Virus record (IMG/VR): IMGVR_UViG_3300033067_001661
Location: 1 to 64,000 of that record
Strand: one strand, 5' to 3'
Source: a virus
Taxonomy: Duplodnaviria; Heunggongvirae; Uroviricota; Caudoviricetes
DNA length: 64,000 nt
This document shows positions 3,881 to 58,910 of the stretch, piece by piece. Below the pieces are notes generated by a model that worked only from the letters and a program-made list of their open reading frames with translations, was not told where the DNA came from and did not search any database. A program made the position numbers and the translations under genes. Position 1 is the first letter of the stretch; every line of letters starts with the position of its first letter.

Positions 3881-4423
3881 ATGGACACAAAAAACATTCA
3901 TGTCGATTTTGAAAAGCTATCAGCAAGTCTTGTTGACGTTCTTCCTATTGCTATTATTATCTTCAACAGCAAGCATGATATAATCTATTGCAACAAACAC
4001 ACAGAAGCTGTATTCGGATACAAAACTGAAGAACTTATAGGAAAGCCTCTTAGTTCTCTTGTTCCTGATAGATTCAAAGAAAGTCATAGCCATGACGCTC
4101 ATGAATATATGAAAAACCCGAAACCAAGGTCTATGAATAATGGACTGGAACTATATGCTATTCACGCAGACCATCATGAATTCCCCGTAGAAATAGCTCT
4201 TTCTCCATTAGTCAAAGACGACGGAGAACAACTTGTGGTAGCTTCCATTCTTGATCTAACTAAAATGACTTCTCTTATTCTTAGAGTTGATTCTTCTGTT
4301 TTAGCTAACACTGAACTTCAGGGCAAGATTGTTGCAATGAAAGAAAAGATGGTAGAAATGGAAGAGAAGTATTCTTCGCTTCTAAAAAGCTCCCGGTTGG
4401 ATTCGAACCAACGTGTCGTTTAA
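3881..4423 (+). CDS. PAS-domain protein with C-terminal coiled coil
   Basis: N..TE.VFGY..EELIGKPLSSLVP...FPVEIALSP...DLT PAS signature. Confidence 0.85.
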   Translation: MDTKNIHVDFEKLSASLVDVLPIAIIIFNSKHDIIYCNKHTEAVFGYKTEELIGKPLSSLVPDRFKESHSHDAHEYMKNPKPRSMNNGLELYAIHADHHEFPVEIALSPLVKDDGEQLVVASILDLTKMTSLILRVDSSVLANTELQGKIVAMKEKMVEMEEKYSSLLKSSRLDSNQRVV

Positions 4424-4471
4424 CGATTCTGCTTTGCAGGCAGGCCCATTCAACCTCTCTGGCACAGGAGC
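4388..4471 (-). tRNA. tRNA-Cys(GCA) with long variable arm
   Basis: CTGC-CT GCA AA-GCAG; U73; variable hairpin TCGT-TAA-ACGA. Confidence 0.85.
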
Positions 4472-4472
4472 A

Positions 4473-4628
4473 TGGAGGCGAGGGCAGGACTAGCAACTTC
4501 TTACCTTGCAAGGGTTTTGGTCTTGCGACCAAAGAAGTTTACCTGCACCAGTGTCCGTAATACCAGCCGCTCAAGGCCGCCAGACATCGTTCTATACGAT
4601 GAGCCATCGCACCTTAAACTACCTCGCC
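4473..4628 (-). ncRNA. tRNA-like RNA with hairpin inserts in D, anticodon and T loops; encoded CCA
   Basis: GGCGAGG/CCTCGCC-T-CCA; stems GTTT/GAAC, TGTCTG/CGGACA, GCAGG/CCTGC. Confidence 0.7.
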
Positions 4629-4658
4629 AATAGAAACCGCAAGCGCTAACCTGTTGTT

Positions 4659-4871
4659 TCATATAACTTCAATATCAAACGTTTTACCCGGAAGACATTT
4701 TTTGGCTATAGTCAGTCCTCTAGGAACGGAATAATCTCCAACAAAAACGGATGAACCGTATTGTTCTTTGGATACTATGGCCTCATAGTAAGATGGGGCT
4801 GTTCTTTTAAGAAGAACATATCCTATCTTTTCCTTGCCATCATAAATGGCAATTCTCATTCTTAGTTTCAT
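4659..4871 (-). CDS. hypothetical protein
   Basis: ORF from MKLRMR; the upstream part of the listed ORF is tRNA. Confidence 0.55.
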   Translation of the reverse strand: MKLRMRIAIYDGKEKIGYVLLKRTAPSYYEAIVSKEQYGSSVFVGDYSVPRGLTIAKKCLPGKTFDIEVI

Positions 4872-4873
4872 AA

Positions 4874-4948
4874 AGCCCGCTACAGGACTCGAACCTGTAC
4901 ACTTCTGAGTTGCAGTCAGAGCCATTTGTCCATTTTTGGTAAGCGGGC
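4874..4948 (-). tRNA. tRNA-Cys(GCA)
   Basis: TCTGA-CT GCA AC-TCAGA; U73. Confidence 0.92.
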
Positions 4949-5666: not shown

Positions 5667-5873
5667 GGCAGTATTCCAAACTACTTTGCTAACGAAAGTA
5701 TATCCCAAGCAGCAGTAGCGGCTATGGGCCGACTCTTATGAGTATATTGACCTGTTTTCTCGTTCTCAGCCCACCACCAAGGCCGACCAGCTTCGATTTT
5801 ATGAAGAAGCCGCCAACCATGAAGTTGCAAAGTAGACCAACAAGAAGGAAATAGGTCTTCCCTTATTACATCA

Positions 5874-8187: not shown

Positions 8188-8338
8188 TGGGGACGGTAGG
8201 ATTCGAACCTACAAAGTCTCAAAGACGCCCAGTGTACCGCTGGGTTTGCTCGCCTTCTCTCTATCGTAATAGATCAAAAATTACTATAGAGAGCGGAACT
8301 CGCTTCGCCGCGAGGGTGGCTATCCATGCCGCGTCCCC
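8188..8338 (-). ncRNA. tRNA-Tyr(GTA)-like RNA with a ~65-70 nt structured insertion in the D arm
   Basis: GGGGACG/CGTCCCC-A; CCCAG-CG GTA CA-CTGGG; variable arm GTCT/AGAC; normal T arm. Confidence 0.7.
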
Positions 8339-8360
8339 GAATAATCCGATATTAAAGCAT

Positions 8361-9170
8361 ATGACTCCAATATGGGTTCGTCAAACCAATCTACCAGGTC
8401 TAGGCGATTTTGTTAGAATCTGCCCGACAATTCTTACCCTTTCCCTAAAAGAAGGTCGTCCAATTCCAGTTTTCTTCGAAAACAAAGAAATGGAAGTTAT
8501 TTTCCAAGACTGTTCTTTTATAGAAGTTCTTCAAGAAAAACCCAAAACACCATGTTATCTTTCAACGACAGCAATACTCAATAAGAACATTAAGTATGGC
8601 GCTATCAAAAACAAATACTATGGCGTTCACTTCTCTCTTCATGGAAACGAAAACATGCTTCCATTTTCTATTGGAACCCAACTCCCATATAGAGAGAAGT
8701 TTCCTAATGCAGTAGCTGTTTTTTGCGGTATTGGAGTACCAAGACTCTATAGATACGGCAAAAACATTGGAGACGACAATCGAAGATACATTCTCAAGTC
8801 TCTCATAAAGAGAGGTTACAATCCTGTTATTCTTGGTACTGAGAGCGACCATAAGATGTTCTGGTCTAATATAGACATGACAGGATGTGTAAACATGCTT
8901 GGAAAGACAAAGCTTTTTCAAGCAGTTCGTATTTTGAATGATTGTCAGTTTTTTATCTCGAATGATACATGCCTGTATCATTTTGCTTCTGGACTACAGA
9001 AGAAAGGTCTCGTCTTTTGGAGAGAAACCTCTCACAAGATTGACGGCAACCCATTTGATAAGGACTTTATCCAACACCATCAAAGCGAGGATATAACAAC
9101 TTACAAAACAGTTGTTGACAAGTTCCTTGACAAGCAAAGTTCCCTCCCGGAATCGAACCGAGCTATCTAA
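8361..9170 (+). CDS. glycosyltransferase family 9-like (heptosyltransferase fold)
   Basis: GLGDFV...NMLGKTKL...FISNDTCLYHFA. Confidence 0.8.
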   Translation: MTPIWVRQTNLPGLGDFVRICPTILTLSLKEGRPIPVFFENKEMEVIFQDCSFIEVLQEKPKTPCYLSTTAILNKNIKYGAIKNKYYGVHFSLHGNENMLPFSIGTQLPYREKFPNAVAVFCGIGVPRLYRYGKNIGDDNRRYILKSLIKRGYNPVILGTESDHKMFWSNIDMTGCVNMLGKTKLFQAVRILNDCQFFISNDTCLYHFASGLQKKGLVFWRETSHKIDGNPFDKDFIQHHQSEDITTYKTVVDKFLDKQSSLPESNRAI

Positions 9171-12926: not shown

Positions 12927-12932
12927 ATAAAG

Positions 12933-13011
12933 TGGTGAGAGTAGGATTTGAACCTACGACGCGCTGATTTACCTAGGTTACAGCCGCTCTACCAGACTGA
13001 GCTATCTCACC
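12933..13011 (-). tRNA. tRNA with enlarged anticodon loop, isotype undetermined
   Basis: Intact acceptor, D and T arms; GCTG-TAACCTAGGTAAAT-CAGC. Confidence 0.65.
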
Positions 13012-16373: not shown

Positions 16374-17063
16374 TCATCTCTTCTTCATGAAGTTATGAAC
16401 GCATCTATCTGTTCCGATTGCAACTTCGATATTCTTGATTTTAGAATCGAAGTCTTTTCTGCGCGAAATCGAGCAAATCTCCATTTCTTGCTCAGGTTCA
16501 ACGAAGATTACGTCTGTCGTTTCGTCTGAATAAGAAGGCAGTCTATCGCTCTTTTCGGTCTTGCAGTTGACAAGAAGTTCTGCAAGGGCTTTTCTTACGT
16601 CCTCAACAAGACGAGGATAGTAGTCATTAGAAGTATTCGCAGCAAACAGGATCTGAAACTCAAGTTGATAAAACTCTTTGAGTCTCATGAACTTTGTTGG
16701 CTGGTCTTGTTCTCTTCGGAAGCTCTTTCCATGTTGCCAGACGCAGATTGGCGGTTTGAACTTCGGGTCATGATACCCGCTCAAGATATGGCGAGCATAC
16801 GCATATGACCCCATTGTTGTTTCTGGTCTCAAGGCAAGCTGATCAACCATGTAGAAATCATCAACTGAATAGTTGAGATTAATTTCGCTAGACGGCGTAA
16901 GAATCGGCGCTTCGCATTGAACAAGCTTGAAAGCTTGATTCATAGAAAGCAAAGAGCGACGAACAGCAGAAACCATATGTTCAACGAACATATTTCGGAT
17001 TCTGATTTCCTCTTCAGACCAAAAGACCAACCCGTTGACGTTATACAAATTCGCATGAGACAT
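16374..17063 (-). CDS. minimal class II aaRS catalytic core, alpha2 GlyRS-like, no anticodon-binding domain
   Basis: LRPET, motif 2 GKSFRRE..MRLKEFYQLEFQ, motif 3 IEVAIGTDR eight residues before the stop. Confidence 0.85.
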   Translation of the reverse strand: MSHANLYNVNGLVFWSEEEIRIRNMFVEHMVSAVRRSLLSMNQAFKLVQCEAPILTPSSEINLNYSVDDFYMVDQLALRPETTMGSYAYARHILSGYHDPKFKPPICVWQHGKSFRREQDQPTKFMRLKEFYQLEFQILFAANTSNDYYPRLVEDVRKALAELLVNCKTEKSDRLPSYSDETTDVIFVEPEQEMEICSISRRKDFDSKIKNIEVAIGTDRCVHNFMKKR

Positions 17064-19388: not shown

Positions 19389-19529
19389 AGCTGCGCTCGG
19401 GACTCGAACCCGAAACCTCGACCTCAAAATGGTGTTAACCTTCATCCTATCGACCAGTCAGTTATTAGACTGACTGATATGTTGCCGGCGAAGATGTTTT
19501 TTCGCGCTCTACCATTGAGCTAACGCAGC
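19389..19529 (-). ncRNA. tRNA shell with the Y-RNA-like module replacing the anticodon arm
   Basis: GCTGCGT/GCGCAGC, canonical D and T arms; CATA-TCAGTCAG..CTGACTGG-TCGATAG..AAGGTTAAC. Confidence 0.75.
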
Positions 19530-20173: not shown

Positions 20174-20176
20174 AAA

Positions 20177-20301
20177 TACGGCGAGTAGGACTCGAACCTA
20201 CAACCCGGGGTTTGGGTTAACCTTGTTCCATTCGGCCTGAAAAGGCATGTATTAGGAGAAGGTGTTTTAGACTCCTGCTCTGCCAATTGAGCTATCGCCG
20301 T
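20177..20301 (-). ncRNA. second tRNA shell with the Y-RNA-like module replacing the anticodon arm
   Basis: ACGGCGA/TCGCCGT, canonical D and T arms; CATG-CCT TTTC AGG-CCGAATG..AAGGTTAAC. Confidence 0.75.
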
Positions 20302-20373
20302 AAAACTTACTACAGAGGTTAGTCCGCAGCAAACATAGAACTTAACATCGTCAAGTCAATAAGGAGTTCACAA

Positions 20374-21383: not shown

Positions 21384-21498
21384 AGCAGCAAGCCGGACTC
21401 GAACCGGCAACTTTCTAAATTCCGCCTCTAAGGTTAAGAGGAATCGACACCTCACAGGAATCCCTCTCGGGGACACTCTGCCATTGAGTTATTGCTGC
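21384..21498 (-). ncRNA. tRNA shell with three hairpins in place of the anticodon arm
   Basis: GCAGCAA/TTGCTGC; D arm ACTC/GAGT; T arm GCCGG TTCGAGT CCGGC. Confidence 0.7.
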
Positions 21499-56222: not shown

Positions 56223-58910
56223 TCAGACCTTTACATACTTACCAGGAAGCTCTACGCCAACTTCAACTCGCTGCTTTTTACCATTTGAGTCTTCCAATAC
56301 AACATATCCGTCAGATTTAGAAACAACTCTAAAAGATTCTTCTTGACTTGCTTCAAAAGCAATGCCTGAAGACTTACTTCTAAATCTGTCTCCAACAGCA
56401 ACCATTGAAGAAGAGCCAGGCTCTCTATAAATCATCGACTTAACGCCTTCCCATTCTGAAGGAGAACCTTCTCCAGGAAGTCTACCGCCAGCGCCAAACT
56501 CAGAAGCAGAACTTGCGTCTGCCTCTTTTACTCTATTATACCAGCCTTGAGCCTTTTTTGGACCATACATATTCTCTATCTCCATTCGCATAGACTCAAC
56601 AAACGCAATTGCTTGCTGTTCGTCCACGATATTACCGCCAAGCTGCTCTTCAAGAAGCTTGTCTTGAATATACTTAATGAAAGAGGGCAATCCCTTTGGC
56701 GGCTTAGGAGTTAGAGTAGGAAACATCTGCTGTAAACGGTTGCCGTCAACAAGCGGTTTCATCTGAATTGGAACAGGCCTATTCAAGTATTCTCTCATTT
56801 GCTCGGCATGTTGACCCTTTAGGTCAAAGTCAGCCTGATCGCCTTCATCAGACTTCGCCATTGTATCTGCTTGAGCATGCATCATAACAAACTCCCAGAG
56901 ATCCTTTCGGTCGCTACCTGGGATTTGCGTATCACGCATAAACTTACCAATGGATTTGTTAGTCCAAGAGTCAGTGTGAGGCCTCATATGTTGACGAACA
57001 ACGACATTGACAAACTTACGGTCGTCTTCGCCAATACCAATTCTCTTCATGATGGCGTCAGCTATGTCAGCAGACTTATCCTCATGACCAACATAGGTAT
57101 ATTCGCCTGGATCATGTTCTTTCGGCTTTCCAATTTCAGGATGAGCCTTACCATAATCATGAAAGACCGCAGCCATAAGCATGTTGATTCGATCTTTCTT
57201 GGAAACATTTCTTTGCTTCATGAGTTTGTCAAGATTTTCGACAACTCTCAAAGTATGCTCAAGAAGGTTGAACTTGTGATGCCTATTCCTTTGGTCCATG
57301 TTAAGGGGAAGTAGGTTCCTTGTCTCTTCAGCGTCAAAAATAGCAGCGTCGAGACCTGTTGCAAACATGGCTCGAATGGCAGCCGCAGGTCTTTCTGCGC
57401 CAAACATCTTAATAATTTCAGGACCAGCCCTCTCAGGAGCCACCTTGCTTCTATAGGCATTATGAACATCAGGGTCTCTCATTGCATTGAGAGTCCCTTC
57501 GTCAATATTTGCATTTGGATAACGACTATAGAAACGGAAAACTCTAAGCATTCGCAAAGGGTCGTCCATAAACGTCTTTTTCGGGTCCAGAGGCGTCCTA
57601 AGAACCATAGATTGAAGATCTTTGAGACCTCCAACATAATCCTCGACCTGACCAGTATTAACGTTATAGAACATGGCGTTGATTGTTAAATCTCGCCTCA
57701 AAGCGTCAACCTTTGGATCGTCAGAAAGAGTCATTGTTGGAATACGAGAATCGCCATAGCTCTCGTCTCGAAGGTTGACAAAATCAATCTTCAAACCACC
57801 AATGTCAAGAGCGGTTGTTTCAAGATGCTTTGACTTCTCAACATTCTGCTTTACAACATATGCAGAGTCAACCTTAATGGGAGAACCTGGAACCATCTTT
57901 GTATATTCAATGGCCTTATTGACAAACTGTTGTCCAGTCATTTTGTCAAGAGCGATATCAATATCGTCGCTTGGAGTTCCAAGAAGTTTATCTCGAACCC
58001 AGCCGCCTGCAACTCTGAAAGTAATACCCAAAGACATCTTTGTATTGATATCCATGAGGGTTGCAAAGATTGTTTGCTCTTGAGGAGTTAGATTGATTTG
58101 AGGCATTGCTGCTGCTTCTTTTCTACGTCCAATATGACGAACTATGCTGTCAAAAAATCCAGAGTTAGCCCAATATTCTGCTGTATATCTCTCTGGCCTT
58201 CTCTTATATACTTTACTATCAGGATGCCTGTCCCATCTTATTGATAATACATCTTGCAAAGCCTGCGTTGGGCTAATAGACCTACACTTCTCTTTATGAA
58301 TACCAAGAGAGGGTATATCAACCTCAAATAAGTGCATTGTTCTTGCGAACTTATACTTATCTATACCAGGTATGAAAGAAGTCGTATAAACAGGACAGCC
58401 AATATTAGTCTCTTTAGAAATTGCTTCAACTACTCGAACATTTTCATACCCGCCTCCCTCAACAACAATGCAGTTGATCGCATCTGTTATATCGAGTTCA
58501 TTGGAGTCAAAAATCGCAAGACCACCATAAGTCTTGACTTCGCAGCCATTCTTTTCTGCAATTTTGTTCGGGTCTAACGACAAGAACAATCTGCATTTCT
58601 GTTCTTTGAAAATTCTATCAGAGGCGGCATTGGAGAACAATAGAATACTAGAAGGAGCGGTAACTCTCTTTGTCTCTAGTATCCTGCGAAGCTGAACAAT
58701 GTCGCATGGATAAACCGACTTGCCATAAAACTCCTTATTCTCGAAAACGACCTGCAATAAATGCCTTGGAGAAACCTGCAAAATTCTCTCTGTATCTCTA
58801 GCGGAAAGAAGAGCGCGAATTATATCCTTAGCAAGATCTTCAGTCAACTTCTGACCGCAATTCTGCTGATAAACCGTAATCGTGTCTTTGATGATCGTTT
58901 CGAAATCCAT
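56223..58910 (-). CDS. tRNA nucleotidyltransferase (class II CCA-adding/PolyA polymerase family, HD domain) with N- and C-terminal extensions
   Basis: VAGGWVRD..DIDIA, RRDLTINA, DDPLRMLR, EHT...FHDYGK. Confidence 0.92.
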   Translation of the reverse strand: MDFETIIKDTITVYQQNCGQKLTEDLAKDIIRALLSARDTERILQVSPRHLLQVVFENKEFYGKSVYPCDIVQLRRILETKRVTAPSSILLFSNAASDRIFKEQKCRLFLSLDPNKIAEKNGCEVKTYGGLAIFDSNELDITDAINCIVVEGGGYENVRVVEAISKETNIGCPVYTTSFIPGIDKYKFARTMHLFEVDIPSLGIHKEKCRSISPTQALQDVLSIRWDRHPDSKVYKRRPERYTAEYWANSGFFDSIVRHIGRRKEAAAMPQINLTPQEQTIFATLMDINTKMSLGITFRVAGGWVRDKLLGTPSDDIDIALDKMTGQQFVNKAIEYTKMVPGSPIKVDSAYVVKQNVEKSKHLETTALDIGGLKIDFVNLRDESYGDSRIPTMTLSDDPKVDALRRDLTINAMFYNVNTGQVEDYVGGLKDLQSMVLRTPLDPKKTFMDDPLRMLRVFRFYSRYPNANIDEGTLNAMRDPDVHNAYRSKVAPERAGPEIIKMFGAERPAAAIRAMFATGLDAAIFDAEETRNLLPLNMDQRNRHHKFNLLEHTLRVVENLDKLMKQRNVSKKDRINMLMAAVFHDYGKAHPEIGKPKEHDPGEYTYVGHEDKSADIADAIMKRIGIGEDDRKFVNVVVRQHMRPHTDSWTNKSIGKFMRDTQIPGSDRKDLWEFVMMHAQADTMAKSDEGDQADFDLKGQHAEQMREYLNRPVPIQMKPLVDGNRLQQMFPTLTPKPPKGLPSFIKYIQDKLLEEQLGGNIVDEQQAIAFVESMRMEIENMYGPKKAQGWYNRVKEADASSASEFGAGGRLPGEGSPSEWEGVKSMIYREPGSSSMVAVGDRFRSKSSGIAFEASQEESFRVVSKSDGYVVLEDSNGKKQRVEVGVELPGKYVKV

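Follow-up and report, generated by a model that had tools for sequence, protein, structure and literature searches.

Results

Setting of the element within a phage tRNA array

The DNA analysed here, which we call the window, is the first 64 kb (64,000 nucleotides) of an IMG/VR virus record of 333,623 bases that is rated 66% complete. The phage is a huge wastewater phage, and public runs in which this stretch was found came from wastewater, river and digester samples. ARAGORN reported 42 tRNA genes in the record, all of them on the minus strand between positions 50 and 29439. The array that they form is a mosaic between strains and contains homing-endonuclease-like genes. It includes a tRNA with the anticodon CUA, which prompted the idea of stop-codon reassignment, and the open-frame statistics gave no sign of it. 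Also on the minus strand, the gene at 56223-58910 encodes a protein of 895 residues with a poly(A) polymerase/CCA-adding head domain and an HD domain, which is the CCA-adding enzyme of the phage and possibly a repair enzyme as well. The minus-strand gene at 16374-17063 encodes a class II synthetase core of 229 residues that has no anticodon-binding domain and is closest to GlyRS, its best solved relatives being Thermus GlyRS and others (E about 1e-5 to 1e-6). A gene for a PAS-domain protein (3881-4423) lies within the tRNA array on the opposite, plus strand, and its 3' end overlaps the antisense of a tRNA-Cys gene.

The element under study occupies 4473-4628, on the same strand as the array, and sits between two tRNA-Cys genes as located by ARAGORN; no promoter or terminator of its own was found there. 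Upstream of it on the minus strand is an open reading frame of 70 codons (4659-4871, ATG at 4871 and stop at 4659) that belongs to no known family, and the leader between the two (4629-4661), which runs from the stop codon of this frame (4659-4661) to G1 of the element, folds as a small hairpin. Downstream, a single U (4472) separates the CCA of the element from G1 of the next gene, a tRNA-Cys(GCA) of 84 nt at 4388-4471 (minus strand) that was detected by both ARAGORN and Rfam (52.5 bits). This tRNA-Cys has a long variable arm, which is unusual for Cys, and the same holds for its counterparts in two relatives (L007, about 8300-8390; L008, about 5790-5870). The sequence of the variable arm differs among relatives (UCGUUAAACGA, UCGUUAAAACGA, UCGCCUUGUUGCGA) with its pairing maintained.

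Anatomy of the 156-nt element

An earlier reading, made from the sequence alone, had described a tRNA scaffold at this place with helices inserted in all three loops, and every sequence feature that it named is present on the minus strand within 156 nt. Pairing, spacing, core nucleotides and the response of ARAGORN to the insert-free skeleton all back that description. All 49 pairs of the cloverleaf are standard (49/49), and because four of them are G-U, the cloverleaf fits only the minus-strand RNA and not its complement. The frame consists of an acceptor stem of 7 bp, a D stem of 4 bp, an anticodon stem of 6 bp and a T stem of 5 bp. The inserts measure 15, 18 and 45 nt in the D, anticodon and T regions, and each of them lies in a loop, none in a stem. 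The spacers are those of a tRNA, with two nucleotides (U8 A9) after the acceptor stem, one or two before the anticodon stem and five in the variable loop, and the T stem stacks directly on the acceptor stem.

The 5' strand of the acceptor stem, GGCGAGG (RNA positions 1-7; 4622-4628), pairs perfectly with CCUCGCC (4477-4483) at a pair probability of 0.97. Read directly on the minus strand, the rest of the 3' end (4473-4483 in all) is the discriminator U (4476) followed by a templated CCA (4473-4475), exactly as had been claimed. U8 A9 and the D arm take up 4589-4621, where the stem GUUU/GAAC (4616-4619 with 4589-4592) encloses the loop AAGGU...AUA. The hairpin seen earlier in this loop is the 15-nt insert GCGAUG-GCU-CAUCGU (4596-4610; 6 bp), which follows G18 G19 U20 and so separates U20 from A21. 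Natural tRNAs vary in length at this very site. The lengthened anticodon arm (4552-4586) starts with the 6-bp stem UGUCUG/CGGACA, continues through an internal loop (G / GUAUUA), and carries on top the 5-bp hairpin CGGCC-UUGAGC-GGCUG (4564-4579, direct reading), which is the GGCC/GGCT extension of the sequence-only reading. The arm has no 7-nt anticodon loop; its terminal loop is the 6-nt UUGAGC on an extended helix. The variable loop CUGGU (5 nt; 4547-4551, direct reading) ends in the equivalent of U48, a potential partner of A15. In the T arm (4484-4546), the stem GCAGG/CCUGC (4542-4546 with 4484-4488) closes the loop UA...GCUAGU, and the branched insert proposed for this loop was found as a three-way structure of 45 nt (4495-4539). 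Its helix of 8 bp carries two hairpins, one of 5 bp with a GCAA loop and one of 3 bp with a UGCA loop, and the insert reads AACTTCTT, UGGUC-GCAA-GACCA, CCU-UGCA-AGG, AAGAAGTT. Pair probabilities in the T arm were 0.65 for the T stem, 0.60 for P1 and 0.95 for P2.

Direct reading placed many of the core nucleotides of tRNA at their proper positions in the element, namely U8, A14, A15 with U48, G18 G19 and A21, together with the G53-C61 pair, U54 and A58. By eye, the T loop may be mapped as U54, then a segment made of A, the 45-nt insert and G, then C56, U57, A58, G59 and U60. The element departs here from the T-loop consensus U54-U55-C56-R57-A58, and equivalents could be placed, again by eye, only for U54, C56 and A58.

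Detection as a tRNA and predicted fold

The intact element was not called by ARAGORN, whether introns were allowed or not, and it had no Rfam match either at the gathering score (29 bits for the tRNA family, RF00005) or at E values up to 10. When positions 19-33, 49-66 and 90-134 were removed in silico, the remaining 78 nt were called as a tRNA by ARAGORN at default thresholds, with an 8-nt T loop, the anticodon loop GUAUUAC and the anticodon AUU. Because we picked the boundaries of the excisions by hand, the anticodon AUU carries no weight, and what the test shows is the tRNA frame. A parent tRNA was sought among 164 tRNAs of the phage and its relatives, and none of these was close to the element. 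A crude scan of the arrays of a related genome for acceptor-plus-CCA closures returned scattered matches only, and a looser window scan in which G-U pairs were allowed gave mostly noise.

The minimum free energy (MFE) fold of the element was -58.0 kcal/mol, compared with -51.8 kcal/mol for the cloverleaf, a difference of 6.2 kcal/mol. This fold keeps the acceptor stem, the T stem and the T insert of the cloverleaf, and replaces the D and anticodon arms with one interrupted hairpin of 19 bp (positions 10-60) and a weak hairpin (62-82). Ensemble pair probabilities were near 0.02 for the D and anticodon stems, and the modelled ensemble prefers a different fold for positions 10-82. The alternate fold is partly due to CAUCGU (28-33), for which there are two partners, GCGAUG (19-24) and ACGAUG (39-44), the latter forming a perfect helix. 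The folding z-score of the whole element against shuffled sequences was only -2.5. Energy models ignore tertiary contacts, and the model also misfolded the genuine tRNA-Cys next door.

The templated CCA

The claim that this element has the only encoded CCA held up when all tRNA-shaped genes were counted, since it was found in 1 of 43, and each of the 42 ARAGORN tRNAs of the record (42/42) lacks it. In all 42 of these ordinary tRNA genes the discriminator is followed directly by TT or CTT, and such a uniform U-rich trailer fits a maturation of the ordinary tRNAs by RNase Z and a CCA-adding enzyme. In the element, CCUCGCC-U-CCA is followed by one U and then by G1 of the tRNA-Cys. The templated CCA is retained in all nine copies of the element, and we think that it is the most telling feature of the element.

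Copies of the element and their neighbours

Exact-word scans and a search by way of the neighbouring PAS-domain gene found eight further copies, all of them in very close relatives: on the viral contigs L002 and L003 (the L003/L004 contig being counted once), on the metagenome contig L101 and on the Logan contigs L102 to L105. Four of the eight are identical to the element of the window, three have one base change, and the remaining one has a 5-nt deletion besides two substitutions. The identical copies are those of L101 and L103-105. In L003, the change A90G replaces an A-U pair in the helix of the T insert by G-U, so that the pair is kept, and in L102 the change C115U affects a junction nucleotide. 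The L002 copy combines C115U, C136U and the 5-nt deletion, which leaves only a weak T stem. A covariation check on a model-based alignment found no pair that was changed on both sides among only four distinct sequences. In four public runs, of which two are wastewater metatranscriptomes, contigs run through the element with no sequence difference and no joint inside it. Since contigs do not reveal RNA ends, can derive from DNA and leave out rare forms, this neither proves transcription nor speaks against splicing.

A covariance model of the element had no match in six other members of the phage group that are more distantly related; they include records rated 98% and 100% complete, whose CCA-adding enzymes are 78% and 48% identical to that of the window. 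The absence of the element from these six means that it is either young or dispensable. A blastn search of the element against 50,697 phage records gave no match. Short words from the element were rejected as leads to further copies. A 17-mer of the T insert matched 76 viral contigs, 74 of them new, and nearly all of these matches lay at the start of an unrelated protein gene; a 19-mer of the anticodon arm had three matches, all in GC-rich coding regions; and a 20-mer of the 5' end had one match, in an unrelated Oscillospiraceae contig.

In G001-G004, the relatives in which the Cys region was read, two tRNA-Cys genes are separated by a different structured module of 139 nt. This module (..UAUCGAAGGUUCGACUCC..CAUAG..) was located at 8150-8300 of L007, 5640-5790 of L008 and 1006-1169 of L002. 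L002, L003, L101 and L102 have the 139-nt module, a hairpin leader and then the element, and the window has the 70-codon ORF and then the element. The hairpin leader of those four contigs differs from the window leader at 4629-4661. Between strains its stem changes from UUUUCC/GGGAAA to UUUUUC/GGAAAA (L002, 1006-1037; L102, upstream of 1582 on the minus strand) by wobble steps that keep the pairing. Similarity of the window to its relatives sets in 2 nt ahead of G1 of the element. This border and the exchange of the upstream neighbour show that the element is a discrete unit, which either arrived recently in one sublineage or was lost elsewhere. Across all copies, the element has one constant neighbour, the tRNA-Cys with the long variable arm.

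Selective constraint versus recent spread

In four strains the element had diverged less than any other feature around it, and its copies in L003, L101 and L102 have 0-1 substitutions in 156 nt. In L102, the divergence from the window was 0.6% for the element, 2.4% for the tRNA-Cys that lies 1 nt downstream, 6.7% for the upstream tRNA-Cys and 18.3% for the PAS gene. The values for L003 were 0.6%, 2.4%, 6.7% and 9.3% in the same order. In L101, they were 0% for the element, 6.0% for the downstream and 4.0% for the upstream tRNA-Cys, and 28% for the other flank. When the four strains were pooled, 4 of 624 nt differed in the element as against 12 of 336 nt in the adjoining tRNA-Cys (Fisher p = 0.002, the strains not being independent). 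In two metatranscriptome contig sets, the whole of a block from 4373 to 4926 that includes the ORF had only two differing sites, compared with 7-8% in the flanks, which shows that blocks do move within the mosaic array. The low divergence of the element can mean either purifying selection at least as strong as that on a tRNA or a recent spread driven by recombination. Both readings treat the element as a unit, and the damaged copy in L002 shows that it can be lost.

The sequence-only reading had taken the fully paired inserts as a sign of selection rather than decay. Perfect hairpins can arise from palindromic insertions and are therefore no proof of selection. Selection is suggested by the low divergence, and the lack of covariation, the narrow range and the damage in L002 weigh against it, so that this part of the reading stands as a suggestion.

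Other tRNA-shaped genes of the array

Three oversize tRNA-shaped genes on the minus strand (19389-19529, 20176-20302 and 21384-21498) have normal acceptor, D and T arms, and in each of them a structured segment of 36-71 nt replaces the anticodon loop. Two of the three contain the motif AAGGUUAAC and the third contains CUUAACC; the gene at 19389-19529 is 84% identical in a related genome of 494 kb. At 8188-8338 (minus strand) lies a Tyr-like tRNA-shaped gene of 151 nt with a normal T arm and acceptor stem and a (C)UU trailer, whose D region is expanded by several hairpins. With 92-99% identity in L002, L003 and L008, this gene is more widely kept than the element at 4473-4628. In L003, a tRNA-shaped gene of 132 nt with a 60-nt middle insert (8710-8841, minus strand) lies between the CUA tRNA and a tRNA-Thr, which are adjacent in the window. 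ARAGORN read a tRNA with a four-base anticodon (aggt) in the related genome (L011, 11451-11532, plus strand); its acceptor stem (GGUGAGG) and its D arm resemble, as unaligned sequences, those of the CUA tRNA of the window (12932-13011, minus strand). The array holds several non-decoding tRNA-shaped genes, among which the element is the clearest case of a complete tRNA frame that carries extra helices.

Discussion

A proposed tRNA look-alike cut from the array transcript

We propose that the element is a tRNA-derived, non-decoding stable RNA that would be cut from the transcript of the array, similar in kind to RNA C and RNA D of phage T4 and of a new architecture, and we judge this proposal to be about evenly poised between right and wrong. 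In its favour, the element keeps the phase of the array, with a single nucleotide between it and the next tRNA, and it was retained while its upstream neighbour alternated between the 70-codon ORF and the 139-nt RNA module. The substitutions among its copies either hit a junction (C115U) or preserve a pair (A90G, giving G-U). The element probably acts as a tRNA look-alike and not as a decoder, its tRNA chassis serving, as we see it, to carry the extra helices. Having no 7-nt anticodon loop and an altered elbow, it should be unable to serve on the ribosome, and its action would most likely proceed through the acceptor end and the tRNA-like body. It might mimic, or act as a decoy for, a factor that binds or cuts tRNAs, or it might be an acceptor for aminoacylation that is independent of the anticodon.

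The templated CCA suggests how such an RNA might be finished. RNase Z acts on precursors that lack CCA and grips the tRNA elbow through a flexible arm, and CCA-adding enzymes use their tail domain to measure from the elbow (PMC4810234). The helices inserted in the D and T loops of the element would alter the elbow, and the element may accordingly be a poor substrate for both enzymes. It would be part of a long minus-strand transcript of the tRNA array, in which RNase P would cleave at G1 of the element and again at G1 of the adjoining tRNA-Cys. The RNase P site of the tRNA-Cys at 4388-4471 would in this way also make the 3' end of the element, and removal of the single U would then leave a finished ...U-CCA end. 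We suggest that the CCA of the element is templated because RNase Z and the CCA-adding enzyme, which finish the other tRNAs, both read the elbow; a templated CCA and the RNase P cut of the next tRNA would together bypass the two elbow-reading enzymes. This elbow argument would explain why this one gene differs from its 42 neighbours.

A more specific proposal, which we consider doubtful, is that the element is an acceptor RNA charged at U73-CCA without reading of an anticodon, or a bait for host toxins that attack acceptor ends. Elbow and anticodon would then have been rebuilt so as to exclude the ribosome, RNase Z and the CCA-adding enzyme, and the GlyRS-like core encoded at 16374-17063 would be one possible charging enzyme. 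In the usual view, phage tRNA arrays are supplies of ordinary tRNAs that serve codon usage or anti-defence. If the charging or bait proposal is true, these arrays also yield purpose-built tRNA mimics. More generally, a blocked elbow together with a templated CCA gives a testable rule for maturation without RNase Z and the CCA-adding enzyme. Should the RNA prove to be produced, and to be either charged or bound by a defence factor, this would provide a function for a class of phage RNA that has lacked one since T4 RNA C and RNA D were described. If the element is instead a relic, it shows how tRNA genes decay in mobile arrays through palindromic insertions.

Other explanations of the element

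The element could also be a functionless relic, that is, a tRNA gene disabled by three palindromic insertions and carried along in a recombining block, its source perhaps being a host whose tRNA genes encode CCA. We regard this as possible, though on balance unlikely. It would account for the confinement of the element to a narrow sublineage, with closer as well as more distant relatives lacking it, for the absence of covariation and for the damaged copy in L002. The array as a mosaic between strains with homing-endonuclease-like genes agrees with it too, and in the runs X5 and X7 the adjacent ORF shows no more change than the element does, in line with a block that was shared recently. A decaying gene is harder to reconcile with the 49 intact pairs, with stems that are all free of insertions, and with the retention of the core nucleotides and the CCA. 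Moreover, the adjoining tRNA-Cys has 5 changes in L101 and 2 in L102, against 0 and 1 in the element, so that a shared block would need borders that coincide with those of the element, and the element persisted when its upstream neighbour was exchanged. Another view accepts a real RNA and gives it a different fold, in which only the acceptor stem and the T arm form a frame, resembling that of T4 RNA C, around a single long hairpin of positions 10-60, with the D and anticodon stems of the tRNA type as an evolutionary leftover. This rather unlikely view draws on the MFE fold, which is 6.2 kcal/mol better than the cloverleaf, on the pair probability near 0.02 of the D and anticodon stems, on the perfect CAUCGU/ACGAUG helix within the interrupted 19-bp hairpin, and on T4 rnaC, which folds alike into two long hairpins and a T arm. 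Against this, the energy models that produce the fold disregard tertiary contacts and misfold the genuine tRNA-Cys next door, the cloverleaf register puts U8, A14, R15-Y48, G18 G19 and A21 at the exact sites of a tRNA, and ARAGORN accepts the skeleton of the element.

Three further readings appear much less probable. That the element is a cis-acting processing or stabilising element for the following tRNA-Cys, with no role of its own, is very unlikely; the tRNA-Cys with the long variable arm is indeed the sole neighbour kept in all copies, but relatives have the same tRNA-Cys without the element, and a leader would not need an acceptor stem, a discriminator and a CCA. We consider it highly improbable that this is a true tRNA gene with three introns, from which a decoder of 78 nt with an anticodon such as AUU or UAU would be spliced. 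Deletion of 19-33, 49-66 and 90-134 does yield a tRNA(AUU) with U33 and A37 in ARAGORN, but direct reading found no bulge-helix-bulge at any junction, a group I intron would be far larger than any of the inserts, which match no Rfam intron family, and the 333 kb of the record (66% complete) contain no tRNA splicing endonuclease (PF01974) and no RtcB or Rnl2 ligase. The spliced T loop would also read UAGCUAGU, which is not UUCRANY, and an Asn anticodon with A34 is not known in bacteria. Lastly, a plus-strand frame of 53 codons from ATG to TAG (4472-4633) spans the element almost exactly, which would make the RNA structure incidental to a small protein gene. We find this scarcely credible: the frame belongs to no Pfam family, all three substitutions in relatives (3/3) are non-synonymous (F to S, V to I, A to T), the deletion in L002 shifts the frame, and the AGGAG that precedes the ATG by only 1 nt is the antisense of the 5' end of the tRNA-Cys. 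A tmRNA was rejected on the grounds that pair 3-70 is C-G rather than G3-U70, that there is no tag frame and that the ARAGORN tmRNA search was negative.

Comparison with known systems

In reference to canonical tRNA (RF00005), the element shares the 7-bp acceptor stem, U8, the 4-bp D stem, G18 G19, the 5-nt variable loop, the 5-bp T stem closed by G53-C61, the discriminator and the CCA. It differs in having no 7-nt anticodon loop, no T-loop consensus and structured insertions of 15, 18 and 45 nt. Other RNAs that borrow the shape of a tRNA provide a second point of reference. In YrlA, a bacterial Y RNA bound by Rsr/Ro60, the two ends of the molecule pair into the Ro-binding stem and a loop caps the acceptor-like stem, whereas the ends of the element form a true acceptor stem with NCCA. 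Because of these ends, and with no TROVE (Rsr) or RtcB gene in the 333-kb record (66% complete), we rejected a YrlA-type Y RNA as an identity for the element. The tRNA-like 3' modules of long non-coding RNAs (mascRNA type) and the pseudo-tRNA 'tRNA-Other' of B. cereus are likewise processed by tRNA enzymes without decoding. Both are compact cloverleaves without loop insertions, mascRNA receives its CCA post-transcriptionally, and neither is related to the element in sequence or setting. Mimicry of tRNA for the maturation of RNA ends has been mentioned before (PMC4810234), and the YrlA-type Y RNAs, which do not decode and mimic parts of tRNA, also occur in phages (PMC7824862).

T4 RNA C and RNA D are stable RNAs from the tRNA region of phage T4 whose role is unknown (PMC3014915; PMC9697503). 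We fetched and folded the sequences of RNA C (species 1, 139 nt) and RNA D (species 2, 119 nt). Like these two RNAs, the element is encoded within a phage tRNA cluster, on the tRNA strand and beside a tRNA, and it falls in the same size range of about 120-160 nt. In RNA C, a terminal stem and a T arm likewise surround long hairpins. However, the T loop of RNA C is the canonical UUCGAAU, and RNA C lacks a D arm, the spacing of a tRNA core and a templated CCA, whereas the element has a whole cloverleaf frame, an interrupted T loop and a templated CCA. Compared by eye rather than by formal alignment, the sequence of the element bears no likeness to RNA C or RNA D. In kind, the element would resemble T4 RNA C and RNA D as a non-decoding RNA that matures from a tRNA transcript, and it stands apart from them in sequence and architecture.
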